From Candidatus Altiarchaeota archaeon (GTDB lineage Archaea > Altiarchaeota > Altiarchaeia > IMC4 > SCGC-AAA252-I15): a stretch of DNA of 64,000 nt. The position numbers and the translations under genes are program-made. The DNA lies in the NCBI GenBank assembly GCA_043800255.1, contig JAZDNF010000009.1:96001-160000 (forward strand), in the 5' to 3' direction. The notes below the pieces were generated by a model. That model ran no database searches. It had not been told where the DNA came from and saw only the letters and a program-made list of their open reading frames with translations. This document shows, piece after piece, positions 1,959 to 27,022 of the stretch. How positions within the stretch are numbered: position 1 is the stretch's first letter; each line of letters begins with the position of its first letter.

Positions 1959-2942
1959 TCAGTATCGCGCCTTCCCCTTAAGCGCTTCGACGTTCTCCGA
2001 GCCTGTCAGGAACATCGCTATCCTGAATTCCTTTAACGTTTTCTGCACGTACTCCCTGACTCCTCCCTTCTTCTTCCTTTCCCATGCCTTCAGCAGCGGC
2101 AGTGCAATCCCAGCGCATGACGCTCCCATCGAAACAGCCTTGGCAATGTCTATCCCGGACCTCACGCCCCCGGAGGCGACTAATGGCATTCCAATGTCCT
2201 TCAGCTGGATTATGCAATCCGCGGTCGGCATTCCCCAGCCTGCGAACGACATGCCGACGTCGTTCCCGCTCCGGTAGCTCTCGACCACGCTCCATGATGT
2301 GCCGCCTACGCCGCCAACGTCTATGGCCGATACTTTCAGTTTCTTGGCGTCGTCTAATGAGACGCCGCTGCCGACGCCCTTCACTATCAGGGGCACGTCC
2401 AGCTTCTTCGCAATCTCGTTTATCTTCTTCGTCAGGCCTTCGAAGTTGGTGTCGCCCTCAGGCTGCACCGCCTCCTGCAGGGGGTTGACGTGCAACGCCA
2501 GCGCGTCGGCGCCTATCATCTCAACCGCTTTCCTGCACTCTTCCAGCCCGTAGCCGCAGTTCAGCTGCACTGCTCCGAGGTTTGCTATCAGGAAGGCACC
2601 GGGAGCGACATCCCTCACACGATAGGTGTCCGCGACCTTAGGGTCTTCCAGGGCCGCCCGCTGGCTTCCGACTCCGAAGCCTATCCCGAACTCCTGAGCA
2701 ACCGCAGCCAAGTCCCTGTTTATCCTCTTTGACATTTTAGTGCCGCCGGTCAACGCCTCGATTATTAGGGGAAATCTGAGGCTCTTGCCCAGGAAACTGG
2801 CTTCCGTGCTTATCTTGTCTAAGTCCAGTTCCGGAAGCTCCGTGTGCGGCAGGCTCACCTTCTCGAAGCCTGCGCTGCCTGCCTCAACGTCCCTGCTGAG
2901 GCATATCCTCAGGTGCTCTGTCTTCCGGTCTGTCGTAGCCAT
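1959..2942 (-). CDS. fni: Type 2 isopentenyl-diphosphate delta-isomerase (FMN)
   Basis: RKTEHL, ALTGG, GVGSQRAAL, HVNPLQEAVQPEGD, GGTSWS and ASGGVRSG motifs. Confidence 0.95.
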   Translation of the reverse strand: MATTDRKTEHLRICLSRDVEAGSAGFEKVSLPHTELPELDLDKISTEASFLGKSLRFPLIIEALTGGTKMSKRINRDLAAVAQEFGIGFGVGSQRAALEDPKVADTYRVRDVAPGAFLIANLGAVQLNCGYGLEECRKAVEMIGADALALHVNPLQEAVQPEGDTNFEGLTKKINEIAKKLDVPLIVKGVGSGVSLDDAKKLKVSAIDVGGVGGTSWSVVESYRSGNDVGMSFAGWGMPTADCIIQLKDIGMPLVASGGVRSGIDIAKAVSMGASCAGIALPLLKAWERKKKGGVREYVQKTLKEFRIAMFLTGSENVEALKGKARY

Positions 2943-2948
2943 TCGTTA

Positions 2949-3938
2949 CTAATAGTTCCTCTCTATTATATAATCAGCCACATCAAGGAGGTTGCTTTTC
3001 GCCTCAGAGTCCTTGAGAACCTTCAGCCTGCCTTTTGCGTCCTCTGTCATGCTCTTGACCATATTCTGGGCGTATTCTATCGCCCCGCTATCAGTTATCA
3101 GTTCTATCGCTTCCCTGACCGCCTGCTCGCTTTTGCTGCTTCTCTCCATGAGACCAATAAGCTGCTTTTTCTCTTTAGCTTTCAGGTTGTTCAGCGCATA
3201 GATGACTAGAATGCTCTTCTTTTTCTTCCTGATGTCGCTTCCTATCGGTTTGCCGAGCTTCTTCTGGTCTGCGATGACGTCCAAGAGGTCGTCGTGCATC
3301 TGGAATGCGGTCCCTATAGAGTCTCCGAAGGATGATAGCGCATTTATCTCCTCTCTCGAGCCGCCTCCGAGTATGGAGCCTATCCTCAGCGACGCATTCA
3401 GCATCACCCCCGTCTTCTTCCGTATCATCTCCATATAGTCGTCGATGCCGATCCGGTCCATGTTCTCGAACATCATGTCAAGTATCTGGCCTTCATGTAT
3501 TTCGGAGTTGGCCCAGTTGAGGACTCCAAGGGCGTCAAGCACCTTGCCGTCTGATATGCCATTCTCCCTCACATCGACGAGAGCCGCATAGGCTTTGGAG
3601 TAGAGCGTGTCCCCGACGATGATTGCCATGTCAACCCCCCATTTGGCGTGCACTGTCGGCTTGCCTCGCCTCTCAAGGTCCCTGTCGACTATGTCGTCAT
3701 GGACCAATGTAAAAGTGTGCAGCAGCTCTATCGATGCAGCCGCAGGAAGCACCTTCATCACGTCTCCGCCGACGGCCTCGCATGCGAGCATCGTAAGCAC
3801 AGGCCGTATCCTCTTGCCGCCAGCCCCGACCGTGTGCTGGAGCATCGTCTCTATCTTCTTGTTCTCGCTTCTCGTGTATTCGAGAAGCACCGGCTGCACC
3901 AGCTCCGCCTTCCTCCTGATGAAATCTCTGACGTCCAT
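2949..3938 (-). CDS. idsA: Geranylgeranyl diphosphate synthase (polyprenyl synthetase)
   Basis: GGKRIRP, first Asp-rich LVHDDIVD..RRG, KT, second Asp-rich FQMHDDLLD, GKPIGSD. Confidence 0.93.
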   Translation of the reverse strand: MDVRDFIRRKAELVQPVLLEYTRSENKKIETMLQHTVGAGGKRIRPVLTMLACEAVGGDVMKVLPAAASIELLHTFTLVHDDIVDRDLERRGKPTVHAKWGVDMAIIVGDTLYSKAYAALVDVRENGISDGKVLDALGVLNWANSEIHEGQILDMMFENMDRIGIDDYMEMIRKKTGVMLNASLRIGSILGGGSREEINALSSFGDSIGTAFQMHDDLLDVIADQKKLGKPIGSDIRKKKKSILVIYALNNLKAKEKKQLIGLMERSSKSEQAVREAIELITDSGAIEYAQNMVKSMTEDAKGRLKVLKDSEAKSNLLDVADYIIERNY

Positions 3939-3957
3939 TGTAAGTTATTGGTAGAAC

Positions 3958-4617
3958 TTAAAATAAACCCTCAAGGACGTGAACGTTGACGACCTCGAGG
4001 GTGTCGACGATCATGTTCGGCTTCTCTTTTTTCAGATGCTCTCTCCTGTGGTTTCCTGTGGTCACTGCTATGACCTTCATCTTCGCCCTCCTGGCGGCCT
4101 GAACTCCGAATGGTGAGTCTTCAAGGACAACGCAGTCTTCTGGCTTTGCTCCTAACCTCTCGGCGGCCTTCAGGAAGATGTCCGGGTTGGGTTTGCCGTT
4201 CTCGACATCGTTGAATGTTGCTATCGCGTCAAAGTACTGCCAGAGGCCTGCGGCTTTCAGCACCAACTCTGTTGTGGACGTATTCGATGATGTGCCGACC
4301 GCGGTTTTGATGCCTTTCTCTCTCAGCTCCTTGAGGAGTTCGCGGACGCCGGGCAGCACTTTAACATCGTCGCCCAGCGTCTGTTCAACAATCCTTGAAC
4401 GTTCCAGCGCCAGCTTCCTCGTGTCAGCCTTGATGTCCTTTTCCTCGAAGAACATGTCCATGATCTGGTCGCCTCTTAGCCCATAACCTTTCATCAGGTC
4501 TTCTGCCGTGAAGTTCAGGTTGAACTGCTCTTCTATGACTCTCTGGAACGCCTTCAGATGGGTTTCGAATATGTCAACGGTCGTCCCGTCCAGGTCGAAT
4601 ATCACAGCCTTCAGCAT
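3958..4617 (-). CDS. HAD-family phosphatase (beta-PGM/CbbY-like)
   Basis: Start corrected to ATG 4617 (MLKAVIFDLDGT); GKPNPDIF and EDSPFG motifs. Confidence 0.88.
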   Translation of the reverse strand: MLKAVIFDLDGTTVDIFETHLKAFQRVIEEQFNLNFTAEDLMKGYGLRGDQIMDMFFEEKDIKADTRKLALERSRIVEQTLGDDVKVLPGVRELLKELREKGIKTAVGTSSNTSTTELVLKAAGLWQYFDAIATFNDVENGKPNPDIFLKAAERLGAKPEDCVVLEDSPFGVQAARRAKMKVIAVTTGNHRREHLKKEKPNMIVDTLEVVNVHVLEGLF

Positions 4618-4683
4618 AGTTCTAAAGTAATCAAAGTACAATATTAAATGCTGTTCCAATCGTCTAAAGTCTTGCTGAGATGC

Positions 4684-6732
4684 TCAGATGAACAGCGGCG
4701 CCAACACCAGCGTGAGGGTGCTGAGCAGTTTTATCAGTACGTGGATTGACGGCCCCGCGGTGTCCTTGAACGGGTCGCCTAGGGTGTCGCCTATGACAGC
4801 AGCCTTGTGCGCGTCGCTCCCCTTCCCGCCGTAAGTCCCCTCCTCGATGTACTTTTTTGCGTTGTCCCATGCGCCGCCGCCCGTGTTAAGCATCAAAGCC
4901 ATCAGTATGCCCGTGATCGTGCTTGTCATCAGATAGGCTCCAACAGCTTCGGCATGCAGCAGTAGGCCGACGATTATTGTCAGGACAACCACGAATACGC
5001 CTGGCAAAACCATCCCCTTCAACGCGGTTTTAGCGCAGATGTCGACGCATTTGGCATAGTCTGGCTTTGCTTTCCCTTCCATAAGCCCTTCAATCTCCCT
5101 GAACTGCCTTCTGACCTCGTTGACAACTTCAAACGCCGTGTTGCTGACCGCCCTTATCGCGAATGATGCGAACAGGAACACCAGCATCGCCCCGAACATG
5201 CCGCCGACGAACACAGGAACCTTTGACAGGTCTATTACCGGAACGCTTCCGGTGTACTTCGCAACCTCGTCCAGATACGCTGAGAACAGTAGGAACGCTG
5301 CCAGAGCTGCTGAGCCTATCGCATACCCTTTTGTCAGAGCCTTTGTCGTGTTCCCGACAGCATCCAACCTGTCGGTTATCTTTCTGAATTTGTCAGCCTG
5401 CCCTGACATCTGGTTTATGCCGCCCGCGTTGTCTGTGATCGGGCCGAAACTGTCCATAGCCAGTATGAAAGCGCACGTGCTCAGCATGCCCATGGTGGCG
5501 ATCGCCGTCCCGTACAGGCCGCCGTTGGATATTCCAGACCACATTCCAAAATCGTAGGCCAGTAGTAATGCTATGCCCAAAACGATTATGGGCAGAGCTG
5601 TTGTCTCCAGCGCGACGGCGAAGCCTGCGATTATGTTTGTGGCGCTGCCTGTCAGAGACGCCTTCGCTATTGACTTTACAGGAGCGTAAGACTGCTCGGT
5701 GTAGTAGACCGTTATCCAGACTATCAGGATTGACGTGATTATTCCCAGCAGCCCGGACATGAAAAACCAGAACCAGTAATCCTTCAACATTACGTACGTT
5801 GTGATCGCAAAGAGCACCGCAGCCAATGCCGCGGTTACGTAGTAGCCCCTGTTCAGCGAAGTCATCGGGTCCTCGTCTTTTTTGTTGTACACCGAGAGTA
5901 TTCCGATTATGCTGGCTACCAGCCCGGACGCCCTTGCCACCAGCGGGAACAGGATTCCAGCGATTCCGAAAATCGGGTACAATGCCACGCCCAGGATCAT
6001 GGCGCCTATGTTCTCAGCAGCCGTTGACTCGAAGAGGTCTGCGCCTCTGCCGGCGCAGTCTCCGACGTTGTCGCCGACGAGGTCGGCTATGACAGCGGGA
6101 TTTCTCGGGTCGTCTTCTGGTATGCCCTGCTCGACTTTTCCGACGAGGTCGGCGCCGACATCAGCCCCTTTGGTGTAGATTCCGCCGCCGAGCTGCGCGA
6201 ACAAGGCGACGAATGACGCCCCGAAGCCGAACCCGACAATCATGAACGGGACCTCTGTGATCGGCAGAGTCAGCGAATAGAGATGGTAGATTATGCTGAC
6301 GCCAAACAGTGACATCGCCACTATTATTATCCCGGAAACTGCCCCGCCCCTCAATGCTATCTTCAGCGCCTCGTCCAGGCTTCTTCTGGATGCTGCCGCA
6401 ACTCGTATGTTCGCCCTGACCGATATCCACATGCCGATGATTCCCGCCAGTCCGGAGCAGAACGCACCGAAGAGGAATGCAATCGCCGTCTTAAAACCGA
6501 AATCAGACTTTCCGATAAAAGCGTATACCGCAATGATTAGGATTCCGACAACCAGCGACATTACCGCTATTGTGGTGTACTGTCTCCTGACAAACGCGTT
6601 CGCGCCATCCTTGATGGCATTAGAGATATCCTGCATCTCCTTGGTTCCGGAGTCCTTTTGGAGAACATGGTAAGCCAGATATCCTGCGAACAAAAAGGAA
6701 AGGATGCTTATCCCAAAGACCAGTTCTAACAA
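4684..6732 (-). CDS. hppA: Membrane-bound ion-pumping pyrophosphatase, K+-independent signature
   Basis: GGIYTKGADVGADLVGKVE, DNVGDCAG, GPITDNAGG, GNTTKA, GDTLGDPFKDTAGP; many TM helices. Confidence 0.95.
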   Translation of the reverse strand: MLELVFGISILSFLFAGYLAYHVLQKDSGTKEMQDISNAIKDGANAFVRRQYTTIAVMSLVVGILIIAVYAFIGKSDFGFKTAIAFLFGAFCSGLAGIIGMWISVRANIRVAAASRRSLDEALKIALRGGAVSGIIIVAMSLFGVSIIYHLYSLTLPITEVPFMIVGFGFGASFVALFAQLGGGIYTKGADVGADLVGKVEQGIPEDDPRNPAVIADLVGDNVGDCAGRGADLFESTAAENIGAMILGVALYPIFGIAGILFPLVARASGLVASIIGILSVYNKKDEDPMTSLNRGYYVTAALAAVLFAITTYVMLKDYWFWFFMSGLLGIITSILIVWITVYYTEQSYAPVKSIAKASLTGSATNIIAGFAVALETTALPIIVLGIALLLAYDFGMWSGISNGGLYGTAIATMGMLSTCAFILAMDSFGPITDNAGGINQMSGQADKFRKITDRLDAVGNTTKALTKGYAIGSAALAAFLLFSAYLDEVAKYTGSVPVIDLSKVPVFVGGMFGAMLVFLFASFAIRAVSNTAFEVVNEVRRQFREIEGLMEGKAKPDYAKCVDICAKTALKGMVLPGVFVVVLTIIVGLLLHAEAVGAYLMTSTITGILMALMLNTGGGAWDNAKKYIEEGTYGGKGSDAHKAAVIGDTLGDPFKDTAGPSIHVLIKLLSTLTLVLAPLFI

Positions 6733-6834
6733 AGTATCACCCCACGACAGCCATGTTCTATTATGACATAGTATGACATAACATATTGTAATGATATTTA
6801 AAAATCACGTTCAGGGAAACTATTCTGGAAAAGA

Positions 6835-8796
6835 TCAGCCCTTTATGCCGAACGATTCTCTGACGTATCTGTCCATCGCCTGCGTGGCAGTCTCATCGGC
6901 GTCGGTTGAACTGGTTATCCTGTCCTTCAGCCCGCTGATGACGTTCGTGAGCTTCTTGTACCCTTTCTCAGCTCTCTCCTTCAGGTTCACGTCGGTTATC
7001 GTCCTGAGTTCAGCTCCTACTGGCCCGGCCTTCAACGCTGCCCTTAGTATGAGCTGCGTCTTTGTCGTAGGCGTCTTAAGCGCATCCCTTAGCTCTGTGA
7101 CGTCCTCACCGAGGGCTTCAAGCCCGTCGGCGACATCCGGGAGAACCTTTGCTAGCTGCTCTATGAACCCTCTCTGCTCGTCAGGCCTCAGCTGCCCGAA
7201 GTAGTCTGCCATCAGCTCCTGCCCCCTTCGCACCTCATCTCTGGTCTTCTCACTCTCTTCTCTCACAACCTCTCTTGTCCTCTCGCCTTCACCTTTACCA
7301 ACCTGCTCGACAGTCCGTCTGGTCTTCTCGCTCTCCAGGGTTATCTGATTGCTTATCTGGTAGAGCTTTTGAAGCAGTTCTGATGTGCCGCCTTCTGAGA
7401 CCGATTCAAGCTTTGATTTGGCGTCCTTCCACATCTGCACGAACCGGCTGGAGTCTTCTAGCACGTAGGACAGGTTCGTGGCCTGCTCGGAGGTTATCTT
7501 GAGCGCGCTCCTGAACAGCTTCGAGTAGGAGTACCCTTTGACACCCTCCGGAGCGTCCGGCATTTCAGCGAGCGATCTCTTCAGTTTTACCGTGAGCGCT
7601 ATCTCATTAGCCCTTGAGGATATGAACCTCTCCTTCACCTCGTCGACTTCAGCGTTCCGGCCTGATTTCTTCATCTCAACGATGTCAGGGTCTACGGAGA
7701 CTATGCCATCCACCGCATCTCGGATGTCATCCTGCCGGACATCATAGCGTAGGGATATTTCCTTTACCATGTCGCCGTAGGGTCTGTCCAGCTTCGCCCC
7801 GAAGTACTGGGGTTCAACGTGTATGCCGAATCTGGTCTTCCCTAATCTTCCAACCGCTGCCGGCCTCTCAGTTATCCTGTGAAGCGACTCGACCTCGCCG
7901 TTCTTCAGCCTGAAGCCGTACTTTGCCGTTCTGCCCTCCTCAGTCACCTCGTGTATTTCCAGGTCGTCCCTCCCTTTTATCGGCATGCTCCCCCTCAGCT
8001 TCGACAGACCATTCTTTCTCATCAGCCTAAGCCATGCGGCGTCTGACTGGCTGACCTCGCCGCCGACTTCCATCCTCCTGTAGTAGTTGTCTTCGGGGGA
8101 GACGATGAACAGGTAGGCGTCGAATGCTGAGCGTATCTTTCCCCCATCCTCGGCCCAGTTCTCTGAGATGCCGGTCACCTCCCCTTCGCTGTTGAATTTC
8201 AGGGCGACCGCTACGTTGCCGGACTTGAAGGGTATCTCCTTCCTGTTGGGAGTGGTCTCGCTCACCGGGAGGTGAGCCAGCAGGTAGCATCCTTGGTCAG
8301 TGTTGATCGGATTCTTGGTGACGTCGGGGTTTATCCTGATGAATCTGAAAGTGTTGATGTCTCCCAGACTGTTGGCGAATCCGTGGGCTGTCAGCTGGGC
8401 GAGAGCTTTCTCAACGCGGGGGTTTATGAAGTCCGGATTGGTGAGAGCCTGATACAGTTCGAGGTTCGAGGTCGCGCTGCCTTGGGGGTAAAGCGACCGG
8501 GGGTGGTTTCTCACTCCCATCATCTTCTGGTCCTTCAGCAGAGCCTCCTCTTCTGAAATCGGGGCGAGAGTTGCCTTGTCTGCTTGCAGGACTCCTAGTT
8601 CTTTTGTCCTGATGTTAGGGTCCTGCGAGAGGTAGTGTTTGAGCCTGTCAGTCGGCATGCGCGGTGATAGAAGTTCCCCGATCGGCTTCTCTGTTATCTC
8701 TCTCAGCAGGCTGGTCAGCTTTCCGACTTCCTCGGCCTGCTCTTCTTTTGGGAGGTCCTTTATTCTGGCGTTCCTGTCAACAGTCCTCTCGGCCAT
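6835..8796 (-). CDS. Hypothetical protein, charged, C-terminal coiled-coil
   Basis: 653-aa ORF with host-like codon usage; no motif recognised. Confidence 0.7.
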   Translation of the reverse strand: MAERTVDRNARIKDLPKEEQAEEVGKLTSLLREITEKPIGELLSPRMPTDRLKHYLSQDPNIRTKELGVLQADKATLAPISEEEALLKDQKMMGVRNHPRSLYPQGSATSNLELYQALTNPDFINPRVEKALAQLTAHGFANSLGDINTFRFIRINPDVTKNPINTDQGCYLLAHLPVSETTPNRKEIPFKSGNVAVALKFNSEGEVTGISENWAEDGGKIRSAFDAYLFIVSPEDNYYRRMEVGGEVSQSDAAWLRLMRKNGLSKLRGSMPIKGRDDLEIHEVTEEGRTAKYGFRLKNGEVESLHRITERPAAVGRLGKTRFGIHVEPQYFGAKLDRPYGDMVKEISLRYDVRQDDIRDAVDGIVSVDPDIVEMKKSGRNAEVDEVKERFISSRANEIALTVKLKRSLAEMPDAPEGVKGYSYSKLFRSALKITSEQATNLSYVLEDSSRFVQMWKDAKSKLESVSEGGTSELLQKLYQISNQITLESEKTRRTVEQVGKGEGERTREVVREESEKTRDEVRRGQELMADYFGQLRPDEQRGFIEQLAKVLPDVADGLEALGEDVTELRDALKTPTTKTQLILRAALKAGPVGAELRTITDVNLKERAEKGYKKLTNVISGLKDRITSSTDADETATQAMDRYVRESFGIKG

Positions 8797-8884
8797 TGTA
8801 CAATGTATATACTAGTCTTTAGAAGATAAAAACCATTCATAAACCCATAGTAACATATGATAAATTGTCCTACTGACACATAAG

Positions 8885-9214
8885 ATGGATGCCAATAACC
8901 TTGAGATTATTCCAGAGGCCATAACCGTGCTAATCGTTGGCAGCGGCCTGCTCTCGAGCATGTACGTGCTCAGGAGGCTTATGGATTTCGAAGACTCAAA
9001 GGAGCAGATCAGGTTTTTTCTTCCCGTGATCTTAGGCATGATCTTGTTCCTGCTGGAGACGGTGGGAAATGCTGCCCACACGTTAGACTCAAACATCCTC
9101 GGCAGCTACGCCAAACTCTGGGAGGACGTTTTCCTGCTGGGAGAGGCTGTCTGCTTCGGGGCGTTCCTTTTCCAGATGAAAAAGGCCTTGATGCCGGCGC
9201 ATCCTGGCGGCTAG
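8885..9214 (+). CDS. Small membrane protein (about 3 TM)
   Basis: Three hydrophobic stretches; first gene of a + strand run ending in mvk. Confidence 0.65.
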   Translation: MDANNLEIIPEAITVLIVGSGLLSSMYVLRRLMDFEDSKEQIRFFLPVILGMILFLLETVGNAAHTLDSNILGSYAKLWEDVFLLGEAVCFGAFLFQMKKALMPAHPGG

Positions 9215-9253
9215 CGGATTTAAATCGTCTGCCTTTTAATATTCTCTCACATT

Positions 9254-10192
9254 ATGGGCTACAGGAAGGTTAAGTCTGTCGCATATCCGGGGCTGCCGGT
9301 CATTTTCGCCGAAGGCTACAGGAAGACCAAGGGCAGGGTATCATATCATGACTCTGTCGGATTGTGCATTACAGACCTGAAGAGGCAGGTCAGGACTGAG
9401 ACTGTCGTTGAGGGCGCTGACGATGGCGTGAGCTTCACTGTGGACGGTGAGGAACTTTCAGGCAACAGGGGCAGGGGCATGCTCAAAATCATCGAAATCA
9501 TGCTCGAGAAGTCAGACTACAGAGGAGGGCTCAACGTAGAGTCCAAAAATCATGGGATACTGACAGGCAGCTCTGACTCGGGAGCTGCTGCACTTCTGAC
9601 AGCCTTGGACTCTTTCCTAGGCCTCAATCTCCCGGATGATGAGCTCCTCGTCATCGGGCTCTGCGGCAGCGAGACCGTCTTCAGGAGCCTCTATGGGGGG
9701 CTCACAGAGTACCGCGTTGGAGGGAGCAAGCCTGAGGCTGAGGTGCTGTCTGAAAGGCTTGGCGTTTCTATTTTCGCAGTCCCGTTCGATGTCGAACGCT
9801 ATCCTGCGGATAAACTCCACAGGAGCGTGGTATCACATCCAGAGTATCCTAGGAGGGAGTCGTCAGTGAGGGAGAGGATAGACACGCTTAAGGCTTACGT
9901 TCGAAAAGGCAACGTCGTCGGAGTCTTACAGTTGATGGAAGACGACGCGAGAGACTGCCACAGGATGTTCACCGAGACAGGCCATGAGGTGATAAAGCCA
10001 GAAATGCAGGAGCTCTGCGACCACGTTGAAAGCCTGAGGAAGAAGGGCCTGAACTCCTACTGGAACGTCTCGGGCGGCAGCGTCGTGTACGTCTTCTGCC
10101 CTGCTGATGAGGGTGAGAAGGTCGCTGGAGAGTTAGGCGGCAGGTGGAAGTGCGCCCAATACAAAACTGCTGTAGCGTCTAGGATTATTTAA
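9254..10192 (+). CDS. GHMP-fold mevalonate-3-kinase-like protein (diphosphomevalonate decarboxylase homolog lacking the catalytic Asp)
   Basis: AYP start motif, GILTGSSDSGAAA P-loop, GSETVFRSLYGGLT and VSGGSVVYV (in place of the decarboxylase DAGPN) match the Thermoplasma Ta1305-type pattern as recalled. Confidence 0.75.
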   Translation: MGYRKVKSVAYPGLPVIFAEGYRKTKGRVSYHDSVGLCITDLKRQVRTETVVEGADDGVSFTVDGEELSGNRGRGMLKIIEIMLEKSDYRGGLNVESKNHGILTGSSDSGAAALLTALDSFLGLNLPDDELLVIGLCGSETVFRSLYGGLTEYRVGGSKPEAEVLSERLGVSIFAVPFDVERYPADKLHRSVVSHPEYPRRESSVRERIDTLKAYVRKGNVVGVLQLMEDDARDCHRMFTETGHEVIKPEMQELCDHVESLRKKGLNSYWNVSGGSVVYVFCPADEGEKVAGELGGRWKCAQYKTAVASRII

Positions 10193-10225
10193 TATCCCTG
10201 ATCTAATCTCTAAAATCGGTGGTTT

Positions 10226-11161
10226 ATGATGGCTGAAGGCTACGGTTACGGGAAGACGATACTTTTCGGGGAGCATTTTGTCGTGTACGGTCTGCCTGCC
10301 ATCGCCTCGGCGTTGGGCAGCAGGACCATTGCAACAGTCGAGAATTCGAAAAAGTACGAGCTGGTTGACAACAGGCCTGCGACGCCAGGCTACAAGAAGG
10401 AGAAGTACGACGAGCAGGTCGTGTCCAACGAGAACATCTTCAGATCATGTGGAGTCGACGTTCAGAGGACTCCAATCAGGATCACCCTAGGGGGCGACCT
10501 GACCGCAGCCTCCGGCGTTGGAGCTTCCGCAGCCTCTGCTGCCGCAATCGCGCGGGCGCTAAATGGGCACTTCAGTCTGGGGTTTAATGATGAGAATATC
10601 AATCAGATTGCTTATGAAGGCGAGAAGGGCTATCATGGTAAGCCGTCAGGCATAGATAACACTGCCGCAGTCTACGGGGGGCTCATCTGGTTCGTCAAAA
10701 ATCTGGAGGGCGGCTCGAACACCATGGAAAGATTGGGTATGAAGGAGCCCTGCGAAATCGTCCTCGGCAACACTGGCCTAACCTCCAGCACCAAAAAAGT
10801 CGTCGCCGACGTCAAGGCCGACAAGGAGGCTGCGCCTGAAAAGTACAGGAGGATATTCGCAGACTACAGTGACATTGTGAGCTCCGCGAGGAAGGCTCTA
10901 ACGTCAGGCAAACTGGATAGGGTCGGCGAACTCATGAGCCAGAATCACAAGCTGCTTCAGGAGATTACAGTATCCTGCGAGGAGCTTGACCTCCTAGTGG
11001 AGACTGCGCTTAAGGCTGGAGCCTTCGGAGCGAAGCTTACTGGCACGGGCCGCGGCGGGCTGATGCAGGCTCTGACGCCCGGCAGGAAGCTGCAGGAGAA
11101 GGTTGCGAATGCTATCGAGGCGAAAGGATTCGCAACGTTCAGAACCAAGATTGGAGTCTAA
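10226..11161 (+). CDS. mvk: Mevalonate kinase
   Basis: GKTILFGEHFVVYG, SGVGASAA, HGKPSGIDN, GAKLTGTGRGG. Confidence 0.92.
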   Translation: MMAEGYGYGKTILFGEHFVVYGLPAIASALGSRTIATVENSKKYELVDNRPATPGYKKEKYDEQVVSNENIFRSCGVDVQRTPIRITLGGDLTAASGVGASAASAAAIARALNGHFSLGFNDENINQIAYEGEKGYHGKPSGIDNTAAVYGGLIWFVKNLEGGSNTMERLGMKEPCEIVLGNTGLTSSTKKVVADVKADKEAAPEKYRRIFADYSDIVSSARKALTSGKLDRVGELMSQNHKLLQEITVSCEELDLLVETALKAGAFGAKLTGTGRGGLMQALTPGRKLQEKVANAIEAKGFATFRTKIGV

Positions 11162-11997
11162 ACCCTGTGGTTGTCTGAGTATATGAGATGCGCTATCTCG
11201 GAGACTGAGTTTCTGTCCCAACCTGGTCCTTTCCTTCGGACTACATGCAGGGAGACTCCGCTGGCTTCGGAGATTCTTCTGATGATGGTTTCGTCAACCT
11301 TCTGATGGACTTTCTTGTCTGTGAGATCTTTTCCAGGCCTCTTCTCGAGTATCAGCTCAGGGTCCTGTGAGACCATCAGTATCGCATTAGGCCGGATAGT
11401 GTTGAAAGCTTCGGAATCCAAGGATACTATAAAACCATTTTTTCCGTAGAGTGTTGCATGAGATTCTATACAGTATGCCTTGCGGGGGTCGTCGCACATT
11501 TTCGCAACCTTTTTCGCAGTCCTTACCCTCAGGCGCTCCTGTTCGACAGGTGACATGTCCTTTATCTGACCTTTTCTGATGTTCTTTTCCTCCAGCGTCA
11601 GGTTCTGCATTTCATCGCCGAAGTTGATTGTTACAATCTTTTCGCCGCCTAATAGTTCGGTTGCCTTTCTCGTGGAGAGCGTCTTCCCTGCGCCTGAAAC
11701 CCCCAGCAGTAGGAACACCTTAGGGCCGCCTGCCCGGGGTTCGAATTTTCCGTATTCTTTAAGTCCCATTTCAAACCCGTCCCTGTCCTCCAAGAGCGAG
11801 AGAGCTTCATCGTCTGTCAGCGTTTGCCCGCGCGCCTCCGCCTCCTCCAGCATCCGCCTGCCGAGGCCATGGGTTGGATCCTTCTTGTTCTTCAGGACGT
11901 CTCTCAGGGTTATCGACTCAAAAGCCTGTCTGAAGAGCCTCTCATCGTCAGTCTCATCAGGGGAGTTTGGCTTCGGGCCTTTTCCTACTGTTTTCAT
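11158..11997 (-). CDS. Archaeal adenylate-kinase (AdkA) paralog with an N-terminal extension of about 90 aa
   Basis: GVSGAGKT P-loop, INFGDEM and ESHATL correspond to AdkA GVPGSGKT, TYGTVM and DTHCTI at 59017-59598. Confidence 0.75.
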   Translation of the reverse strand: MKTVGKGPKPNSPDETDDERLFRQAFESITLRDVLKNKKDPTHGLGRRMLEEAEARGQTLTDDEALSLLEDRDGFEMGLKEYGKFEPRAGGPKVFLLLGVSGAGKTLSTRKATELLGGEKIVTINFGDEMQNLTLEEKNIRKGQIKDMSPVEQERLRVRTAKKVAKMCDDPRKAYCIESHATLYGKNGFIVSLDSEAFNTIRPNAILMVSQDPELILEKRPGKDLTDKKVHQKVDETIIRRISEASGVSLHVVRRKGPGWDRNSVSEIAHLIYSDNHRV

Positions 11998-12002
11998 GGT
12001 GG

Positions 12003-12413
12003 TTAGAACTCTTTCGGCTTTTTCGCGTCAGGCAGCTCTTTCATGCTCGGCGGCGTAGCAGCCTCTTTTATCTCCGTGAACAAGCCCTTATTCACGCGAT
12101 CAAGCAGGTTGGCTGCGAGGTTAGGTTCCATCTCCTTCAAGATGGGATTTTGCGGTTCTCTTGGGTTGTGGGCCGCGGTTTCCTGCAGCAGCTCGATGCC
12201 CTTCAGCAGTGTCAACTTATCTTCAACCGGAAGGCGGCTCGCATAATCGAGCACTCTGCCTTTGGACGGCTGCCTCAGAGAGTATACGATGTTCTGGATG
12301 CCTGATTCTCCAACACTCCTCCCGATGAAGAATAGGAACCCGTTTATCGCGTTCCTGTCCTGGCCGCTGATCCTGTCAGTGCTCGAGTCCTCTTTAGTTT
12401 GCTGTACGGTCAT
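12003..12413 (-). CDS. Hypothetical protein
   Basis: 136-aa ORF co-oriented and tightly packed with its neighbours. Confidence 0.6.
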   Translation of the reverse strand: MTVQQTKEDSSTDRISGQDRNAINGFLFFIGRSVGESGIQNIVYSLRQPSKGRVLDYASRLPVEDKLTLLKGIELLQETAAHNPREPQNPILKEMEPNLAANLLDRVNKGLFTEIKEAATPPSMKELPDAKKPKEF

Positions 12414-12466
12414 CCTGATAACTAACTACTAGGTAAAACAAATCTAAAAGTAGTCTGGCAGGGGAA

Positions 12467-12850
12467 TTATCTGACGGTTACAGTGCCGCCGTCTATCCTG
12501 ACAGTGGCGCCTGTCTTGATCTTATTGACATCAATCTTGTCAACTGCTGGGATGTCGCTGATTATGCACCCGACTGCGACTATCGTCTCCGCTTCAGAGT
12601 TTATCATCGCCTTCGGGGCTTTACCGTTCTTTGCAAGCTGGTAGATTGTATAAGGCGCTACAGTCGAGCCTTTGCCGTAGGGGAACACCAGAATCTTCCC
12701 TGTTATGCACTGCCCGTTGATGTCGCTGTCCTTGTCTGACATGATACCTGTCACAGGATCAACTCCGCCGTAGAAGCTTATCGGGTTCTTGCTGACCAAA
12801 GCCTCACCCTCCACCGTCCCCTTGTTGATTATCCTGCCCTTCAGTTCCAT
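12467..12850 (-). CDS. Phosphomevalonate dehydratase small subunit (AcnX swivel domain, DUF126)
   Basis: Start corrected to ATG 12850 (MELKGR); ISFYGGVDP and GKGST motifs; overlaps the large-subunit stop. Confidence 0.9.
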   Translation of the reverse strand: MELKGRIINKGTVEGEALVSKNPISFYGGVDPVTGIMSDKDSDINGQCITGKILVFPYGKGSTVAPYTIYQLAKNGKAPKAMINSEAETIVAVGCIISDIPAVDKIDVNKIKTGATVRIDGGTVTVR

Positions 12851-14040
12851 TTTCCTGTCACCGCCGTGTTCAGGCACTGTTTGAAGTCGCCTATGTGGAC
12901 GTTCAATTTGTTCTTGCCTCTCGCGTAGAAGCATGCTTTCGCACTTGTGGTGGCCATCGTCTTGAACCTGCCTTTTATGGGGGCGACGACCATGCAGGTG
13001 TCGACTGCCATCTTCCCGCCAGCCTGTTCGATCACTTGGGTGTAGCCTCTCTCGTCTGCGATATCCTTTGTCGGGCGGGCGGTGGCAACCCAGAGTTCAA
13101 CGCCGTCCCTCACCTTCCTGTTCTTCAGATAATCTGAAATCTCAGCTATCTCCTGGATTGACGCGTGCGGGCACCCCAGCGAGACGAAATCGACATCAGC
13201 CGCATCATCGTTCAATGCCTTATACGCTTCCTTCATGTCCTTGTCTGCCACAGTCACAGTCTCCTTGGGAGGCTTGTGCTGTGAGGCTTCAGGCGTTATC
13301 CCTCTTATGTGGTACAGGGGCGGGCTGCCGTAGGTTATAGCCGATGCTCCGAAGCTTTTCAGACTGTCTGTTGACGCCTGCTTCAGACCTGTGATATAAG
13401 GAACCTTGCCATCGCTTGCCTTGCCAATCACGTAACCCAAGGCGCCCCAATCAGAAAGCGACTCTACTTTCGCGTCGACTTTGACATGAAATTTCGGAGC
13501 CCGATTCTCATCCAGATGCAGCCCATACGCTGGGGTCTTGCCTATCATCGCAGCAGCTATCGCTGAGGGGCCGCCTTCCCTGTTACTGCGGGCGCCTATG
13601 ACGGAGTTCACGAAGGTTACCGCGCTGGATTCGGCCCAGGCGACGTGCTCTCCGAATGCTGGGAGGTTTCCGATCAGGTAGGGCGTGCACGTGCACGTCG
13701 TAATAACGCCCATCTTCGCGAACGCCTCAACAACCTTCTTCTGCTTTGCCGCGAACTCGTCTGATATGCCGAGCTTCTTCCACTCGCGCATGTCCATCCC
13801 CGCAGGATTCAACGTCGTGAGAACCTTCACCTGTCCGTCCCTGGCAAGCTCAGACAGGTACTCCAGACCAGCATCTCCGAGGTTGTCGTAGGATACGCCG
13901 GCAATCTGAACGCTTCCAACAGGGATAAGCCGCTCGGCGCCGTAGATCTCGCCCAATGCTATGAGAATCTTCATCGACTTCGCAGCTGCATTACCCTGCC
14001 CGCCCCCTAGGATTTTCTCCTCCTCCCTTGTGAGTTCCAT
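12841..14040 (-). CDS. Phosphomevalonate dehydratase large subunit (AcnX, DUF521)
   Basis: GVSYDNLG, TTLNPAG, CTCTPY, WAESSAV, LGCPHAS, DTCMVV Fe-S ligand motifs. Confidence 0.92.
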   Translation of the reverse strand: MELTREEEKILGGGQGNAAAKSMKILIALGEIYGAERLIPVGSVQIAGVSYDNLGDAGLEYLSELARDGQVKVLTTLNPAGMDMREWKKLGISDEFAAKQKKVVEAFAKMGVITTCTCTPYLIGNLPAFGEHVAWAESSAVTFVNSVIGARSNREGGPSAIAAAMIGKTPAYGLHLDENRAPKFHVKVDAKVESLSDWGALGYVIGKASDGKVPYITGLKQASTDSLKSFGASAITYGSPPLYHIRGITPEASQHKPPKETVTVADKDMKEAYKALNDDAADVDFVSLGCPHASIQEIAEISDYLKNRKVRDGVELWVATARPTKDIADERGYTQVIEQAGGKMAVDTCMVVAPIKGRFKTMATTSAKACFYARGKNKLNVHIGDFKQCLNTAVTGKWN

Positions 14041-14105
14041 CCCCAGTTAAATTATTACCGGCCAAATAAAAAGCTTTTAAGCTTAGGAGGGGGATATTAA
14101 CCACT

Positions 14106-14921: not shown

Positions 14922-14942
14922 GGCAGGCGTTCTCTGTGAGGA

Positions 14943-16229
14943 TTATTCTCCGAGTTTTACTTTCAGGAATTTTTGTTTGTTCTTTGATGAGGGTATGGTT
15001 GCGTCTAATGCGACTTTGGCTGTCTGCCGTCTGTCTGAGCCTTCCATGCATTCTGCGGTGCAGTCCAATGATGAGCCCGGGCCTTTGAATATGTTCGCCC
15101 TCTTGTCGGCCTGGACTCGGGTCGCTATCGCCCATTCTATCTCATCCGGGCTGTAGATGTTGATATCGTCGTCTACCACGATGCAGTGTTTGAGGCTGCC
15201 GTGTCCTTTGAAGGCTGCGTCAGCAGCCTTTTTTCCGTCGTCATCGTTCTTCTTTGATATCTGGACTATGGCATGGAACCATGAGCAGCCTCCGACAGTG
15301 AGGAGCACGTTCTTCACGTCAGCGACCTCTTTTACCGCATTGTATATTGTCGGCTCCTTGGGCATTCCCATCAGCAGCCTGTGCTCATTATAAGCAGGGA
15401 GGAGGCCCTGATAGATCGGGTCCTTCCGGTGGGTTATGCAGTTGATTGTGACTACTGGCTCCTCTCTGACGACGTCCGCAGTCCCGGTGATGTCCGGGAA
15501 CGGGCCCTCCTTGGCGCGTTCCTTCTGCGTGAGAGTTCCCTCGAGTATTATCTCAGCGTCTGCCGGCACCAATAAGTCGTTGGTTTTGCACTTGACCAGC
15601 TCGACCGGCTTCATCGTGTTCGCGATGTCATACTCACTCAAGTCTGATTTCGCGGAAATTGATGCCGCCAGCGATATTGTCGGATGCAACCCCAAACAGA
15701 TTGCAACAGGCAGCGGATCCTGAGCCTGAAGGTTCTTGTAGGTGTCCCGGTGGCATATCCTCGCAACCAGCTTGTTCTTCGCTATGGGTGAGGCCCTGTG
15801 ATATGCCAGGTTCAGTATGCTGTCCTTGTTAGAGCTGACCCAGACTCCGGCGCTAACGTAAGGCCCTAGATCGTTGGTGCAGTGGGTGAGTATCGGCATC
15901 TTCGAAAGATCAACGTCTTTTTCCACGACCTCCTGGCAGGCGCCCTTCTTCACAGCCTTCGGTTTCGTGGGTTTGCCTATTACGTCGGCTATCTTGAACA
16001 GCAGGTCTTCTTTTTTTATCCCCAATGCCTTCGCGAAGTTCTCCCTGCTGCTGCATAAGCCGGCGGCAACCTTGTACTCGGAGCCTTTGACCTTGGTGAA
16101 TAGCACGGCTTTGCCGTCGTATTCCATCAGGACCCTAGCCATCTCAAGGTAGGGGTCAACTTCCCTGTCGAATTTAACGAGCTGTCCTGCCCTGTCAAGC
16201 TCGTCCAAAAAGGCGCGCATGCTCATCAC
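14943..16229 (-). CDS. UbiD-family prFMN decarboxylase, probable trans-anhydromevalonate-5-phosphate decarboxylase
   Basis: EGPFPD, VVDDDINI..EWAIATR, SSLD motifs; context with AcnX, ipk and ubiX. Confidence 0.88.
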   Translation of the reverse strand: MMSMRAFLDELDRAGQLVKFDREVDPYLEMARVLMEYDGKAVLFTKVKGSEYKVAAGLCSSRENFAKALGIKKEDLLFKIADVIGKPTKPKAVKKGACQEVVEKDVDLSKMPILTHCTNDLGPYVSAGVWVSSNKDSILNLAYHRASPIAKNKLVARICHRDTYKNLQAQDPLPVAICLGLHPTISLAASISAKSDLSEYDIANTMKPVELVKCKTNDLLVPADAEIILEGTLTQKERAKEGPFPDITGTADVVREEPVVTINCITHRKDPIYQGLLPAYNEHRLLMGMPKEPTIYNAVKEVADVKNVLLTVGGCSWFHAIVQISKKNDDDGKKAADAAFKGHGSLKHCIVVDDDINIYSPDEIEWAIATRVQADKRANIFKGPGSSLDCTAECMEGSDRRQTAKVALDATIPSSKNKQKFLKVKLGE

Positions 16230-16312
16230 AAATCACCCGCTTAGATATAGTCTTTAAAAAAAATAAGCGATATAATATGTCCCAATGGACCTGTTCACCG
16301 AAGCCATTGCAT

Positions 16313-17095
16313 TCAACATCTGATTACCGTGCCTTTGACTTTCTTCCCTAGGAGGGCATCCCTGACGTTGCCTCTTTTGAGGGCGCTTATGATTTTGGCT
16401 TCGGTCTCTGATGACATGATCTCCCTGACTTTGCCTTCCATCCCTCCTGTGACGTCGGTCGCCTTCGAGCCGGATAGTTTGATCCTGGAGATGTTCTTTT
16501 TGGTTATCAGCGGGATGTGCATTCCGCCGCCATTTTTCGGGTCTCTGTCGTATATGCCGTCGACGTCGGTCGCAATTACCATCCTCTTGGCTTTCAGCTT
16601 TTTGGCGATGTAGGGCGCAAGCTGGTCTCCTGAGAGTATCCCCACCCCCCGTTTTATGTCTATGAGCACGTCGCCGTAGGATACGGGGACCATCCCTATC
16701 TGGAGCATCATCCTGATTGTGTTCACCGGGAACTGCACTAGCTTCCCGTCTTCGAGGATGCCGCCTGCTGAGGGTTGGAATGATATGGCGTTCACGCCAT
16801 TCTTCTGGAGCGTTTCGACGACGTCCTGGTTGAGCTTCTCCATCGACTGGTGCGTTATCGAGAAGCCTATGACCTGCCTCTTTGATTTCAGCCCCCCTTT
16901 CAGCTTGTGCTTTTTGGCGGGGACGTGTCCGAAGGGCCCTGCGCCGTGGACTATCACCAGCCGGGTCCTCTTCTCATTCAATGCTGAGGCTATCTCCGAC
17001 GATAGCCTGCCCAGGTTCTTCTTGTTGATTTCCAGCTTATCCTGCGACTTTTTGGTTATCACCGAGCCGCCGAGCTTCAGCACCACGGTCTCCAT
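16313..17095 (-). CDS. ipk: Isopentenyl phosphate kinase
   Basis: KLGGSVIT, HGAGPFGH (IPK His), SGD, DVDGIY, DVTGGM. Confidence 0.93.
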   Translation of the reverse strand: METVVLKLGGSVITKKSQDKLEINKKNLGRLSSEIASALNEKRTRLVIVHGAGPFGHVPAKKHKLKGGLKSKRQVIGFSITHQSMEKLNQDVVETLQKNGVNAISFQPSAGGILEDGKLVQFPVNTIRMMLQIGMVPVSYGDVLIDIKRGVGILSGDQLAPYIAKKLKAKRMVIATDVDGIYDRDPKNGGGMHIPLITKKNISRIKLSGSKATDVTGGMEGKVREIMSSETEAKIISALKRGNVRDALLGKKVKGTVIRC

Positions 17096-17118
17096 TGTAA
17101 TGAATTTTGAATGAGGGA

Positions 17119-17961: not shown

Positions 17962-19319
17962 TTCAGCGCTTCCATCAGTGCTTTTGCCTTGTCCAAGGTC
18001 TCCTGGTATTCTTTCTCAGGGTCTGAGTCTGCCACTATGCCGCCTCCGACTTGGAAGTAGGCTCTCCCATCTTTTAGGATATATGATCTTATTATGATAT
18101 TCAGGTCCATGTTGCCGTTGAAGCTCAGGTAACCTATGGCTCCGGTGTAGGCGCTCCTCTTGGTCGGTTCAAGTTCGTCTATTATTTCCATGGCTCTGAC
18201 TTTGGGCGCGCCGGTGATGGACCCCCCTGGAAAAGTTGCCCGGAGTATGTCCACCTGATTTACGTCTTCCCTGAGTCTGCCTTCTACTGCGGAGACCATC
18301 TGGAACACTGTCGCATATTCTTCTATTATCTCAAACTCTGACACCTTGACTGTCCCATATTCGCACACCTTTCCCAGGTCGTTTCTTTCCAAGTCTACTA
18401 TCATGATATTCTCAGCCCGGTCTTTTTCGCTCTCCTCCAACTCTTCTTTCAGTTTCCTGTCTTCTTCCCTGTCCTTTCCTCTCGGCCTCGTCCCCTTTAT
18501 GGGGCGTGTCTCGATATGCCTGCCTTCCACTTTGAGGAATCTTTCAGGGGATGCGCTCACAACTTGCACGTCTCCGAAGTTCAGGAAAGCTGCGAATGGA
18601 GCAGGGTTTATCTCTCTCAGCCTCTTGTAGAGCTGCCAGAGGTCTGCTTCTGTTTCTGCTGTGAATCTCTGTGACAGGTTCACCTGGTATATGTCTCCTT
18701 TTCTGATGTATTCTTTAGCCTTTGTTATCGCTTTCAGGTAGTCTTCTTTTCTGAAGTTGGATTCCACATTGGGCGGTTTCAGAGTCGCCTCTCCCTTCTT
18801 TTCCGCTGGCTGGGAGGCCAGCTTCAGCAGCTCTTCTTTTCCATCTTCCGACTGTGAGATGAGAGTGTATTCCCTTTTGAGGTTATCGTAGGCTATTATG
18901 CTGTCGTAGAATCCCAGGCAGCAGTCCCACGCTCTTATGTCGTCTGCCGCTTTGTTGGGCAGGCCTTTTATCGTGAATTTTCCGAGGTCGTATCCGAAGT
19001 ACCCTACGGCACCGCATTGGAAGGGGAATCTTTTTTTCTCGTATCTTTTCCCGTGTCTTTTGAGCAGCTTTCTCAGGACATCGAATGGGTTTCCTCTGGT
19101 CTCTTCTGCTTCCCCGTCCTTTTCGATCAGTATCCTGTCGTCTTTCGTCTTCAGGACTAGGAAGGGGTTGCAGCTCATGTAGCTGTTCCTTCCCAGCTTC
19201 TCGTGGTTCATCCCGCTGTCCAGGAAAAAGCTGTTAGCCTCGCCTGAGATTCTTTCGAATATCTCTGCAGGAGGTTGTCCCAGTCTTATCTTCTCCTCTG
19301 TCATCACTTGCCTTCCCAT
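17958..19319 (-). CDS. pabB: Aminodeoxychorismate synthase component I
   Basis: GDIYQVNLSQR, SPERFL, PIKGTRPRG (PabB Lys), IVDLERND, FPGGSITGAPK. Confidence 0.9.
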   Translation of the reverse strand: MGRQVMTEEKIRLGQPPAEIFERISGEANSFFLDSGMNHEKLGRNSYMSCNPFLVLKTKDDRILIEKDGEAEETRGNPFDVLRKLLKRHGKRYEKKRFPFQCGAVGYFGYDLGKFTIKGLPNKAADDIRAWDCCLGFYDSIIAYDNLKREYTLISQSEDGKEELLKLASQPAEKKGEATLKPPNVESNFRKEDYLKAITKAKEYIRKGDIYQVNLSQRFTAETEADLWQLYKRLREINPAPFAAFLNFGDVQVVSASPERFLKVEGRHIETRPIKGTRPRGKDREEDRKLKEELEESEKDRAENIMIVDLERNDLGKVCEYGTVKVSEFEIIEEYATVFQMVSAVEGRLREDVNQVDILRATFPGGSITGAPKVRAMEIIDELEPTKRSAYTGAIGYLSFNGNMDLNIIIRSYILKDGRAYFQVGGGIVADSDPEKEYQETLDKAKALMEALK

Positions 19320-19855
19320 TTCCTGTAGAGTTTGTGTTCTATTCCGAGGACGTCGAGTATCTTTCCCACGATGAAGGCTGACATGTCGTCTGCCGTCTCA
19401 GGCTTGTGGTAGTATGCGACTTCGGGTGGGAGTATTATGGCTCCTCCCATCTTCAGCTTTCTCATGTTCTCTATGGCTGCCAGCGTGAGTGGGGTTTCTC
19501 TTGGCACTACTATCAGCTTCCATCCCATCTTGAGCATGTTCTCCGCGGCCCTCGTCACCAGGTTATCGGAGTAGCCGTTCGCGACTCCTGAGAGCGTCTT
19601 CATCGAGCATGGCACTATGACCATCCCGTCAACCTTGTATGAGGAGGAGGCTATCTTCGCCATCAGGTTGTCCTCATCGTATGAGCGTGATGCTAGCTTC
19701 CTTATCTCCTTCGGGCTCTTGTTCTCCTCGAACCGGGCGACATCCTCCGCTGCTGAGGTCATTATCAGGTGAGTCTCATGGCCTCTGAGCTCTTCCAGCA
19801 GCCTCTGACCTAGTATTATCCCTGAGGCGCCGGTGATGGCTATTATCAGCTTCAT
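19304..19855 (-). CDS. ubiX: Flavin prenyltransferase
   Basis: ITGASG, PCSMKTL, RETPL motifs. Confidence 0.92.
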   Translation of the reverse strand: MKLIIAITGASGIILGQRLLEELRGHETHLIMTSAAEDVARFEENKSPKEIRKLASRSYDEDNLMAKIASSSYKVDGMVIVPCSMKTLSGVANGYSDNLVTRAAENMLKMGWKLIVVPRETPLTLAAIENMRKLKMGGAIILPPEVAYYHKPETADDMSAFIVGKILDVLGIEHKLYRKWEGK

Positions 19856-23906: not shown

Positions 23907-24036
23907 GCCTGCACCAGCCCGGAACACCTTCTTCAAGAAGGTAACGGATGGCGGCTACAAGATAACGCGAACACACTTCTCAGACTTGGGCATACGATGC
24001 GACGCCGATGTGGACGAGATTGCAAAACTAATCTGA
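23907..24036 (+). pseudogene. Direct repeat copy 1B: orphan trm1 3' fragment
   Basis: Translates PAPARNTFFKKVTDGGYKITRTHFSDLGIRCDADVDEIAKLI*, the Trm1 C-terminus. Confidence 0.9.
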
Positions 24037-24058
24037 ACAACAAAAGAAGGTTCATAGT

Positions 24059-26961: not shown

Positions 26962-27022
26962 ACCCCTGACAATTCTATTTATTGGGTGGGTTCTTTGGCA
27001 CTTTGTCCCTGGCTTTGGGTGC

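Follow-up and report, generated by a model that had tools for sequence, protein, structure and literature searches.

A mevalonate 3-kinase-like gene beside mevalonate kinase in an Altiarchaeota genome with a complete AcnX/UbiD mevalonate pathway

Those variants of the mevalonate pathway that have been reported activate the 3-hydroxyl group, and lose the carboxylate, in different ways. What, then, is the function of a gene resembling the mevalonate 3-kinase (M3K) of Thermoplasmatales in an archaeon that encodes a complete pathway of another type? The gene lies in a 64,000-nucleotide stretch, here called the window, that corresponds to positions 96001-160000 of one contig (JAZDNF010000009.1) of a Candidatus Altiarchaeota assembly (GCA_043800255.1). 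This assembly, designated G000, comprises 1.75 Mb in 17 contigs and is 93% complete. The core of the locus consists of two adjacent genes and the short stretch that precedes them:

9254..10192, + strand: gene for an M3K-like protein of the GHMP/MVD superfamily, 312 aa (open reading frame [ORF] list, family models, alignment, tree)
10226..11161, + strand: mevalonate (5-)kinase gene (mvk), 311 aa (TIGR00549, 230.5 bits; cut-off 163.05)
9217..9253, + strand: AT-rich stretch 5' of the M3K-like gene (TTTAAAT at 9219-9225; TTTTAATATT at 9235-9244)

The ORF at 9254-10192 encodes an M3K-branch protein of the diphosphomevalonate-decarboxylase (MVD; GHMP) superfamily and belongs to an Altiarchaeota-specific subclade. 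Its translation contains AYP (as VAYPGLP), GILTGSSDSGAA, SETVFRSLYGGLT and SGGSVVYV, both IKYWG and DAGPN are missing from it, and only 33 bp (10193-10225) separate it from mvk on the same strand. All of this had been described in an earlier note made from the sequence of the window, and the ORF list, the translation and the TIGR00549 match bear it out. A GGTGG (10218-10222) stands directly 5' of the two ATG codons of mvk (10226 and 10229), and the two genes are probably co-transcribed. The AT-rich stretch upstream, judged by eye, may include a TATA box of archaeal type, in which case the leader would be very short.

Family models place the protein as the earlier note had, with M3K and not with the decarboxylases. 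Pfam M3K_C (PF21433, 71.2 bits) and MVD-like_N (PF22700, 57.4 bits) both match above their cut-offs of 27, and the best-scoring NCBIfam family is NF040848 (M3K; 158.5 bits, cut-off 440), the decarboxylase models scoring 77.8 bits for PMD (phosphomevalonate decarboxylase, NF040704; cut-off 475) and 34.1 bits for DMD (diphosphomevalonate decarboxylase, TIGR01240; cut-off 171.35). The best match among solved structures is Ta1305 (4rkp; E 6.3e-33, 117.5 bits), and the best decarboxylase in the PDB reaches 34.2 bits. A HMMER scan of 1.84 billion representative proteins returned 167 relatives at E <= 0.001, 23 of them at E <= 1e-30, and the source names of the closest homologues are Candidatus Altiarchaeota.

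For phylogenetic analysis, an alignment of 167 rows was assembled from the window protein, from proteins of loci L014-L059 no shorter than 280 aa and from representatives of 270-420 aa, with shorter fragments and longer fusions excluded. Subsampling, which thinned the decarboxylase rows most, yielded a quick tree of 79 rows and a careful tree of 46 rows; sequences of MBD (bisphosphomevalonate decarboxylase) were in neither. In the careful tree a superclade whose members lack the catalytic Asp of the decarboxylases stands apart from the PMD-like and DMD clades with support of 100/100, and the quick tree has the same topology (99 SH-aLRT for the superclade). This long-stemmed Asp-less group consists of a Thermoplasmata M3K clade (100/99), anchored by the L037 protein (359.3 bits to Ta1305), a Micrarchaeota-type clade and an Altiarchaeota clade; the window protein falls inside the last of these (100/99), and its sister is the Micrarchaeota-type clade (100/98). 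On the decarboxylase side, the DMD-type rows carry the DAGPN motif and three sampled members have TIGR01240 as their best model, above its cut-off, while the PMD-like rows carry DTGA and IKYHG and five sampled members score best, but below the cut-off, with NF040704. A grouping of the window protein with true PMD or DMD enzymes, which the earlier note had named as the outcome that would tell against M3K identity, was not seen. An AlphaFold2 model built with 24 homologues has a mean pLDDT of 93.8 and a pTM of 0.91; Foldseek ranks Ta1305 first (4rkp/4rkz, TM 0.89-0.91) and decarboxylases next (TM 0.83-0.89), so that the predicted fold confirms the superfamily and hardly distinguishes its branches.

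The active site is more discriminating. In the alignment the protein reads PVIFAEGY where decarboxylases have IKYWGK, and VSGGSV at their DAGPN or DTGA. Column 273 corresponds to the decarboxylases' catalytic residue, and all 13 PMD-like and all 22 DMD rows have Asp there; the residue is Thr in all 28 Thermoplasmata M3K rows, Ala in 25 of the 26 rows of the Altiarchaeota clade and Gly in the Micrarchaeota-type clade, and the window protein has Ser273. According to PMC9254496 this Asp is conserved in DMD, PMD and MBD and not in M3K, and the D281T and D281V mutants of SsoDMD are 3-kinases without decarboxylase activity. Because the catalytic Asp is lost, as in these mutants, the window protein should be a kinase and not a decarboxylase. 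With PMD and DMD it shares the fold and the Arg of the column that we call Arg144, whereas it has neither their catalytic Asp nor their KYWGK-type phosphate-tail region, scores poorly against their models and sits in a separate clade.

With the M3Ks of Thermoplasmatales, Ta1305 and PTO1356 (EC 2.7.1.185; PDB 4rkp/4rks/4rkz), it has in common the superfamily branch and the fold, the absence of the catalytic Asp and of the KYWGK Lys and Tyr, and the motifs GSSDSGAAA, SE[ST]..RS and R..[SA]D..H. Eighty-three positions are conserved at 85% or more in Thermoplasmata M3K; the Altiarchaeota clade has 38 of them in common, 14 of which are M3K-specific in that they lie outside the PMD/DMD consensus (D108, E140, R182 and D186 among them). 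The clade differs in having Ala or Ser for Thr at the Asp position and FAEG for LLGG. The reading we favour, and to which we give an even chance, is that the protein is a functional 3-OH kinase of the M3K branch that does not decarboxylate, acts on mevalonate (MVA) and is accessory to the main archaeal pathway.

Is the gene functional at all? The ATP motif GSSDSGAAA is retained and is included in the 30 columns that are invariant across 24 Altiarchaeota-type homologues, and from this conservation the gene looks like one encoding an enzyme under selection, working rather than relic. In a sample of 41 genomes (G000 and 40 relatives) the M3K-like gene is present in 23, G000 counted. Its own family (f1) has it in 19 of 20 genomes, G000 not counted, at 40-51% identity; it was also found in both genomes of f3 and in the single genome of f4, while the sister family f5 (14 genomes) and the three genomes from f2, f6 and f7 were without it. 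One metagenome-assembled genome (MAG), G015, carries two M3K-like paralogues on different contigs (L017, L020). Could it instead be what is left, decaying or without catalytic activity, of a Thermoplasma-type pathway that the lineage once had? In favour of this, the partners M3P5K (mevalonate-3-phosphate 5-kinase) and MBD were not found in G000, while the sister Micrarchaeota-type clade keeps full M3K-M3P5K-MBD operons; but the intact frame, the invariant columns with their ATP motif, the near-universal retention within the family and the confident structural model make such a relic extremely unlikely.

The surroundings of the gene are those of isoprenoid synthesis. Within about 18 kb (window 1962-19855) lies a complete archaeal lower pathway, MVK, AcnX, UbiD, UbiX, isopentenyl phosphate kinase (IPK) and IDI2, together with a prenyl synthase (GGPPS):

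1962..2942, - strand: type 2 isopentenyl diphosphate (IPP) isomerase, IDI2 (TIGR02151, 391.1 bits; cut-off 281.3)
2952..3938, - strand: short-chain isoprenyl diphosphate (GGPP-type) synthase (NF040698, 347.3 bits; NF041003, 284.6 bits; both below the equivalog cut-offs)
3961..4659, - strand: HAD-IA (beta-phosphoglucomutase family) hydrolase (TIGR02009, 161 bits; cut-off 153.35)
12467..12934, - strand: AcnX small (swivel) subunit, phosphomevalonate dehydratase (PF01989, 113.9 bits; NF003046, 179.5 bits)
12844..14040, - strand: AcnX large subunit (PF04412, 514 bits)
14946..16229, - strand: UbiD-family decarboxylase (TIGR00148, 353.7 bits)
16316..17095, - strand: IPK (NF040647, 240.9 bits; cut-off 120)
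19307..19855, - strand: UbiX flavin prenyltransferase, supplier of prenylated flavin mononucleotide (prFMN) for UbiD (TIGR00421, 207.9 bits)

The order is IDI2, the GGPP-type synthase, the HAD-IA hydrolase (the first gene of a HAD-GGPPS-IDI2 run), a membrane pyrophosphatase, two ORFs without a family match, the M3K-like gene and mvk; after mvk come a P-loop kinase-like ORF, the small and large AcnX subunits, a HEAT-repeat ORF, UbiD, IPK, two pABA-type genes and UbiX. In the ORF list the frame for the small AcnX subunit shares 94 nt with that for the large one, and because the NF003046 match of the small subunit begins only at residue 29, its true start is probably a Met near 12850. With both AcnX subunits, a UbiD-type protein, UbiX and IPK all present, the earlier note's observation that the M3K-like gene coexists with a complete AcnX/UbiD pathway stands. 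The UbiD protein is a candidate for acting on trans-anhydromevalonate-5-phosphate, a substrate assigned from its neighbours. The main flux to IPP would then run from MVK through the AcnX dehydratase and the UbiD decarboxylase with UbiX to IPK.

Several neighbours fall outside this pathway. Between the HAD and M3K-like genes (4687-9211) lie the membrane pyrophosphatase, a 653-aa ORF without a family match and a 109-aa ORF, none of which was found in the loci of relatives; this segment looks like an insertion that split an ancestral divergent pair of HAD and M3K-like genes. Between IPK and UbiX (17122-19319, - strand) are a class IV aminotransferase (PabC/IlvE-like) and a PabB/TrpE-like gene, a pair that also occurs near the M3K-like gene in L019 and L020, with the aminotransferase alone in L027. 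The P-loop ORF (11161-11997, - strand; AAA_17, adenylate-kinase-like) converges on mvk, the two ends overlapping by 4 nt, and has an N-terminal extension of about 90 residues; in L013 and L040 a homologue 28% identical to it is found some 1.1 kb downstream of the M3K-like gene. Farther along, window positions 24001-41000 form a low-GC island of 36-41% GC against about 53% elsewhere.

Does the M3K-like gene replace a step of the main pathway? AcnX was found in 37 of the 41 genomes, comprising 21 of the 23 carriers of the M3K-like gene and all 14 genomes of the sister family f5, which are without that gene. The two carriers with no AcnX match are G007 (91% complete) and G009 (71% complete), and the former is the only genome with a decarboxylase above the DMD cut-off (338.7 bits). 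On gene content the M3K-like gene is thus an addition to whichever complete lower pathway a genome has and not a replacement for a missing step.

The association with isoprenoid genes recurs in relatives, as seen in 19 loci of the Altiarchaeota clade from 18 MAGs (L014-L029, L031, L032, L040). In 7 of the 19 the next gene downstream, on the same strand, is mvk, and in three more mvk follows at 2.2-5.8 kb; in another three the contig ends at the M3K-like gene. Eleven loci have IDI2, the prenyl synthase or both upstream of the M3K-like gene. In 13 of the 19 a HAD hydrolase gene on the other strand lies no more than 1.5 kb upstream, and across the genome sample a HAD orthologue (at least 145 bits) is present in 17 of 23 carriers versus 0 of 18 non-carriers, where the best score is 103 bits. 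The HAD proteins of one Micrarchaeota operon (L035) were considered as orthologues of the window HAD and rejected, with no tblastn match at E <= 1e-6.

How widely the M3K family occurs has been revised in the literature. Ta1305 was described in 2016 as having no detectable homologue outside Thermoplasmatales (PMC5177888), and M3K in 2018 as restricted to Thermoplasmata plus a handful of Micrarchaeota (PMC6107057). Ta0461, which the earlier note named for comparison, does not occur in PMC5177888. A later survey (PMC11052028; Microorganisms 2024;12:707) reports homologues in Altiarchaeota, Micrarchaeota, Aenigmarchaeota and Heimdallarchaeia, and the earlier note's premise that M3K is confined to Thermoplasmatales is therefore outdated. 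Table S5 of that survey lists for GCA_014727915 (Bin_400; our L021) one each of M3K, MVK, IPK, AcnX1/2 and AMPD and none of M3P5K, MBD, PMK and DMD, a gene set equal to that of the window; for GCA_902384455 (LFW-28; our L040) it lists one each of M3K, MVK, PMK and DMD and none of M3P5K, MBD, IPK, AcnX1/2 and AMPD. Homologues and gene sets are thus already published in a supplementary table, and the find itself is not new. The survey treats the Altiarchaeota M3K as part of the spread of the Thermoplasma-type pathway, and its sections 3.1 and 3.3 and Table S5 do not discuss the gene's orphan status, its synteny with mvk and HAD or its function; our literature search found no biochemical study of any Altiarchaeota M3K homologue.

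Could the gene instead belong to a second route to isopentenyl phosphate? In the Thermoplasma-type pathway M3K is accompanied by M3P5K and MBD, for which we used the models NF008996 (cut-off 250; identified via Micrarchaeota operons) and NF040847. NF008996 has no match in G000 at E <= 0.001 and, across the 41 genomes, gives only weak matches of at most 78.5 bits in five; NF040847 has no match in G000 either, its sole match among the 41 being the DMD of G007 at 50 bits. Nor did searches of G000 return a match to PMD, DMD or PMK. The five GHMP-superfamily genes of G000 encode MVK, the M3K-like protein, an archaeal shikimate kinase, a shikimate-kinase-like protein and beta-RFAP synthase, and the last three were rejected on these identities as a hidden PMK or MBD. 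The P-loop ORF at 11161-11997 was likewise rejected as M3P5K: its matches are confined to AAA_17 and an adenylate-kinase model (66.4 bits, cut-off 155) and do not include NF008996, and of three Thermoplasmatales genomes two have no match to it and the third has a single weak one (E 1.8e-4). Thermoplasmata, moreover, are reported not to use MVK (PMC6107057), whereas here mvk adjoins the M3K-like gene; and Thermoplasma is acid-loving, while the window organism, an uncultured archaeon, is by its source labels (groundwater) a non-acidophile.

The sister clade shows what a fuller set looks like. The Micrarchaeota-type M3K-like genes (L033, L035, L039, L041, L045) resemble that of the window in being Asp-less and in having Arg72, but their loci differ in that an M3P5K homologue follows M3K (NF008996 at 128.3, 129.8, 210.6 and 211 bits in L033, L035, L039 and L045) and in having nearby either MBD (NF040847; L039 and L041, 409 bits) or a DMD-like gene; IPK lies within about 5 kb in L041, L045 and L035. 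By gene content these are recognisable Thermoplasma-type gene sets. In L033 and L045 the gene that accompanies M3K and M3P5K is, by its scores of 259 and 290 bits, of the DMD and not the MBD type.

The earlier note had envisaged a bypass in which MVK and the M3K-like enzyme make mevalonate 3,5-bisphosphate, and had called for a genome search for the decarboxylase that would follow. That search found no bisphosphomevalonate decarboxylase: the only MVD-superfamily gene that PF22700 detects in this 93% complete assembly is ORF 9254-10192 itself, and a route through mevalonate 3,5-bisphosphate is, judged from G000's genes, one with no known decarboxylase. Carried on to isopentenyl phosphate and IPK, such a hybrid would bypass both the Fe-S dehydratase and the prFMN decarboxylase. 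The 33-bp gap to mvk on the same strand, the Shine-Dalgarno-like GGTGG, the recurrence of mvk directly downstream in related loci, the presence of IPK and the clade-wide Arg72 are all in keeping with it, but it would have to operate with no MBD, PMD or DMD homologue in G000 (PF22700, TIGR01240 and NF040847 searches), and a decarboxylase above cut-off occurs in only one of the 23 carriers, G007. The protein no longer has the KYWGK-region Lys and Tyr, which is a weak argument against a 5-phosphorylated substrate, and the homologue in LFW-28 coexists with PMK and DMD, with no IPK listed (PMC11052028, Table S5). We hold this hybrid to be unlikely. Because G000 has neither M3P5K nor MBD, the M3K-like enzyme would be an accessory branch at mevalonate and not a second complete pathway.

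A variant that needs no missing decarboxylase is an ATP-driven back-up of the dehydratase: the 3-OH of mevalonate 5-phosphate (MVA-5-P) would be phosphorylated and the phosphate eliminated, giving trans-anhydromevalonate 5-phosphate for UbiD and replacing only the O2-sensitive AcnX step. The probable operon with mvk and the closeness of AcnX and UbiD would suit it, as would the expectation that decarboxylation does not occur without the Asp (PMC9254496). We consider it very improbable nonetheless: the literature searched offered no precedent, the Asp-less enzymes and mutants described in PMC4357925 and PMC9254496 stop at a stable 3-phosphate, AcnX is kept in nearly all carriers, and G007 has the M3K-like gene without AcnX.

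The question of substrate turns on a handful of residues. The M3K of P. torridus, 38% identical to Ta1305, acts on MVA and not on MVA-5-P or mevalonate 5-diphosphate (MVA-5-PP), and positions 17-21 of the S. epidermidis enzyme are among the regions that bind the diphosphate tail or act in catalysis (both PMC4357925). None of the Asp-less clades retains the Lys and Tyr that decarboxylases have in their KYWGK region, and the Altiarchaeota clade has gained an invariant Glu20; together these changes would weakly favour an unphosphorylated substrate over a 5-phosphorylated one. The phosphate-tail region reads FAEG in the Altiarchaeota clade, LLGG in Thermoplasmata and KYWG or KYHG in decarboxylases. 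Arg72 is invariant in the Altiarchaeota and Micrarchaeota-type clades and is not at that column in Thermoplasmata M3K; the alignment of this loop is ambiguous, and we draw no conclusion from Arg72 as a marker of a phosphorylated substrate.

The enzyme might also phosphorylate some other 3-hydroxy acid or a modified isoprenoid precursor, its link to mevalonate being only ancestral. Thirteen positions that are conserved in both the Altiarchaeota and the Thermoplasmata clades but differ between them cluster at residues 13-20, and the P. torridus enzyme also takes 3-hydroxyisovalerate and 3-hydroxybutyrate (PMC4357925). Set against this are a consistently isoprenoid neighbourhood (mvk, IDI2, GGPPS, IPK) and the Arg144 column, which is Arg in every row of all five clades; on our reading of the alignment it would correspond to position 144 of the S. 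epidermidis enzyme, among the residues that contact ATP or the C-1 carboxylate (PMC4357925). On balance a substrate other than mevalonate seems quite unlikely.

We return, then, to the favoured reading, a mevalonate 3-kinase accessory to the main pathway, whose substrate, product and physiological role we infer as follows. With ATP, the enzyme would most likely phosphorylate the tertiary 3-hydroxyl of (R)-mevalonate and stop at that step; without the catalytic Asp it would not proceed to phosphate elimination and decarboxylation. It would most likely serve as a buffer of mevalonate or as a side sink, converting MVA to MVA-3-phosphate, and the co-conserved HAD phosphatase could perhaps reverse this conversion.

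Several observations weigh against this interpretation. The score of 158.5 bits misses the NF040848 equivalog cut-off widely, although the protein of L037, a close Thermoplasmataceae relative of Ta1305, also falls below it (407.9 bits), and identity to Ta1305 is only 27-28% (Foldseek). Any function of the Altiarchaeota clade is a prediction from sequence and model. No known consumer of mevalonate 3-phosphate was found in G000, so that the product looks like a dead end. An operon with mvk would fit consecutive steps better, which favours MVA-5-P as the substrate; Arg72 could bind a phosphate; and the consistent FAEG/LLGG difference between the clades could mean a substrate different from that of Thermoplasmata M3K. 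The link to the HAD enzyme consists of neighbourhood and co-occurrence only, among kin genomes that are not independent.

In a bolder and rather doubtful extension, the M3K-like kinase, MVK and the HAD enzyme would together form an undescribed mevalonate branch in one Altiarchaeota lineage, either an Fe-S-independent ATP route via mevalonate 3,5-bisphosphate or a phosphorylation cycle. In the first form, phosphomevalonate could be converted to trans-anhydromevalonate phosphate or isopentenyl phosphate by a decarboxylase or eliminase unrelated to the known ones; in the second, a cycle of phosphorylation and dephosphorylation (or a phosphomutase-like one) on mevalonate could gate the flux into archaeal lipids.

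For the biology of these archaea, the locus presents a 3-kinase-type enzyme that selection appears to maintain, although the lineage has no need of it for the known route and lacks the two partners known for it. Either there is an undescribed use for mevalonate 3-phosphate, or the Altiarchaeota clade uses a different substrate; in both cases the activity of the enzyme would bear on the origin of M3K from PMD-like ancestors.

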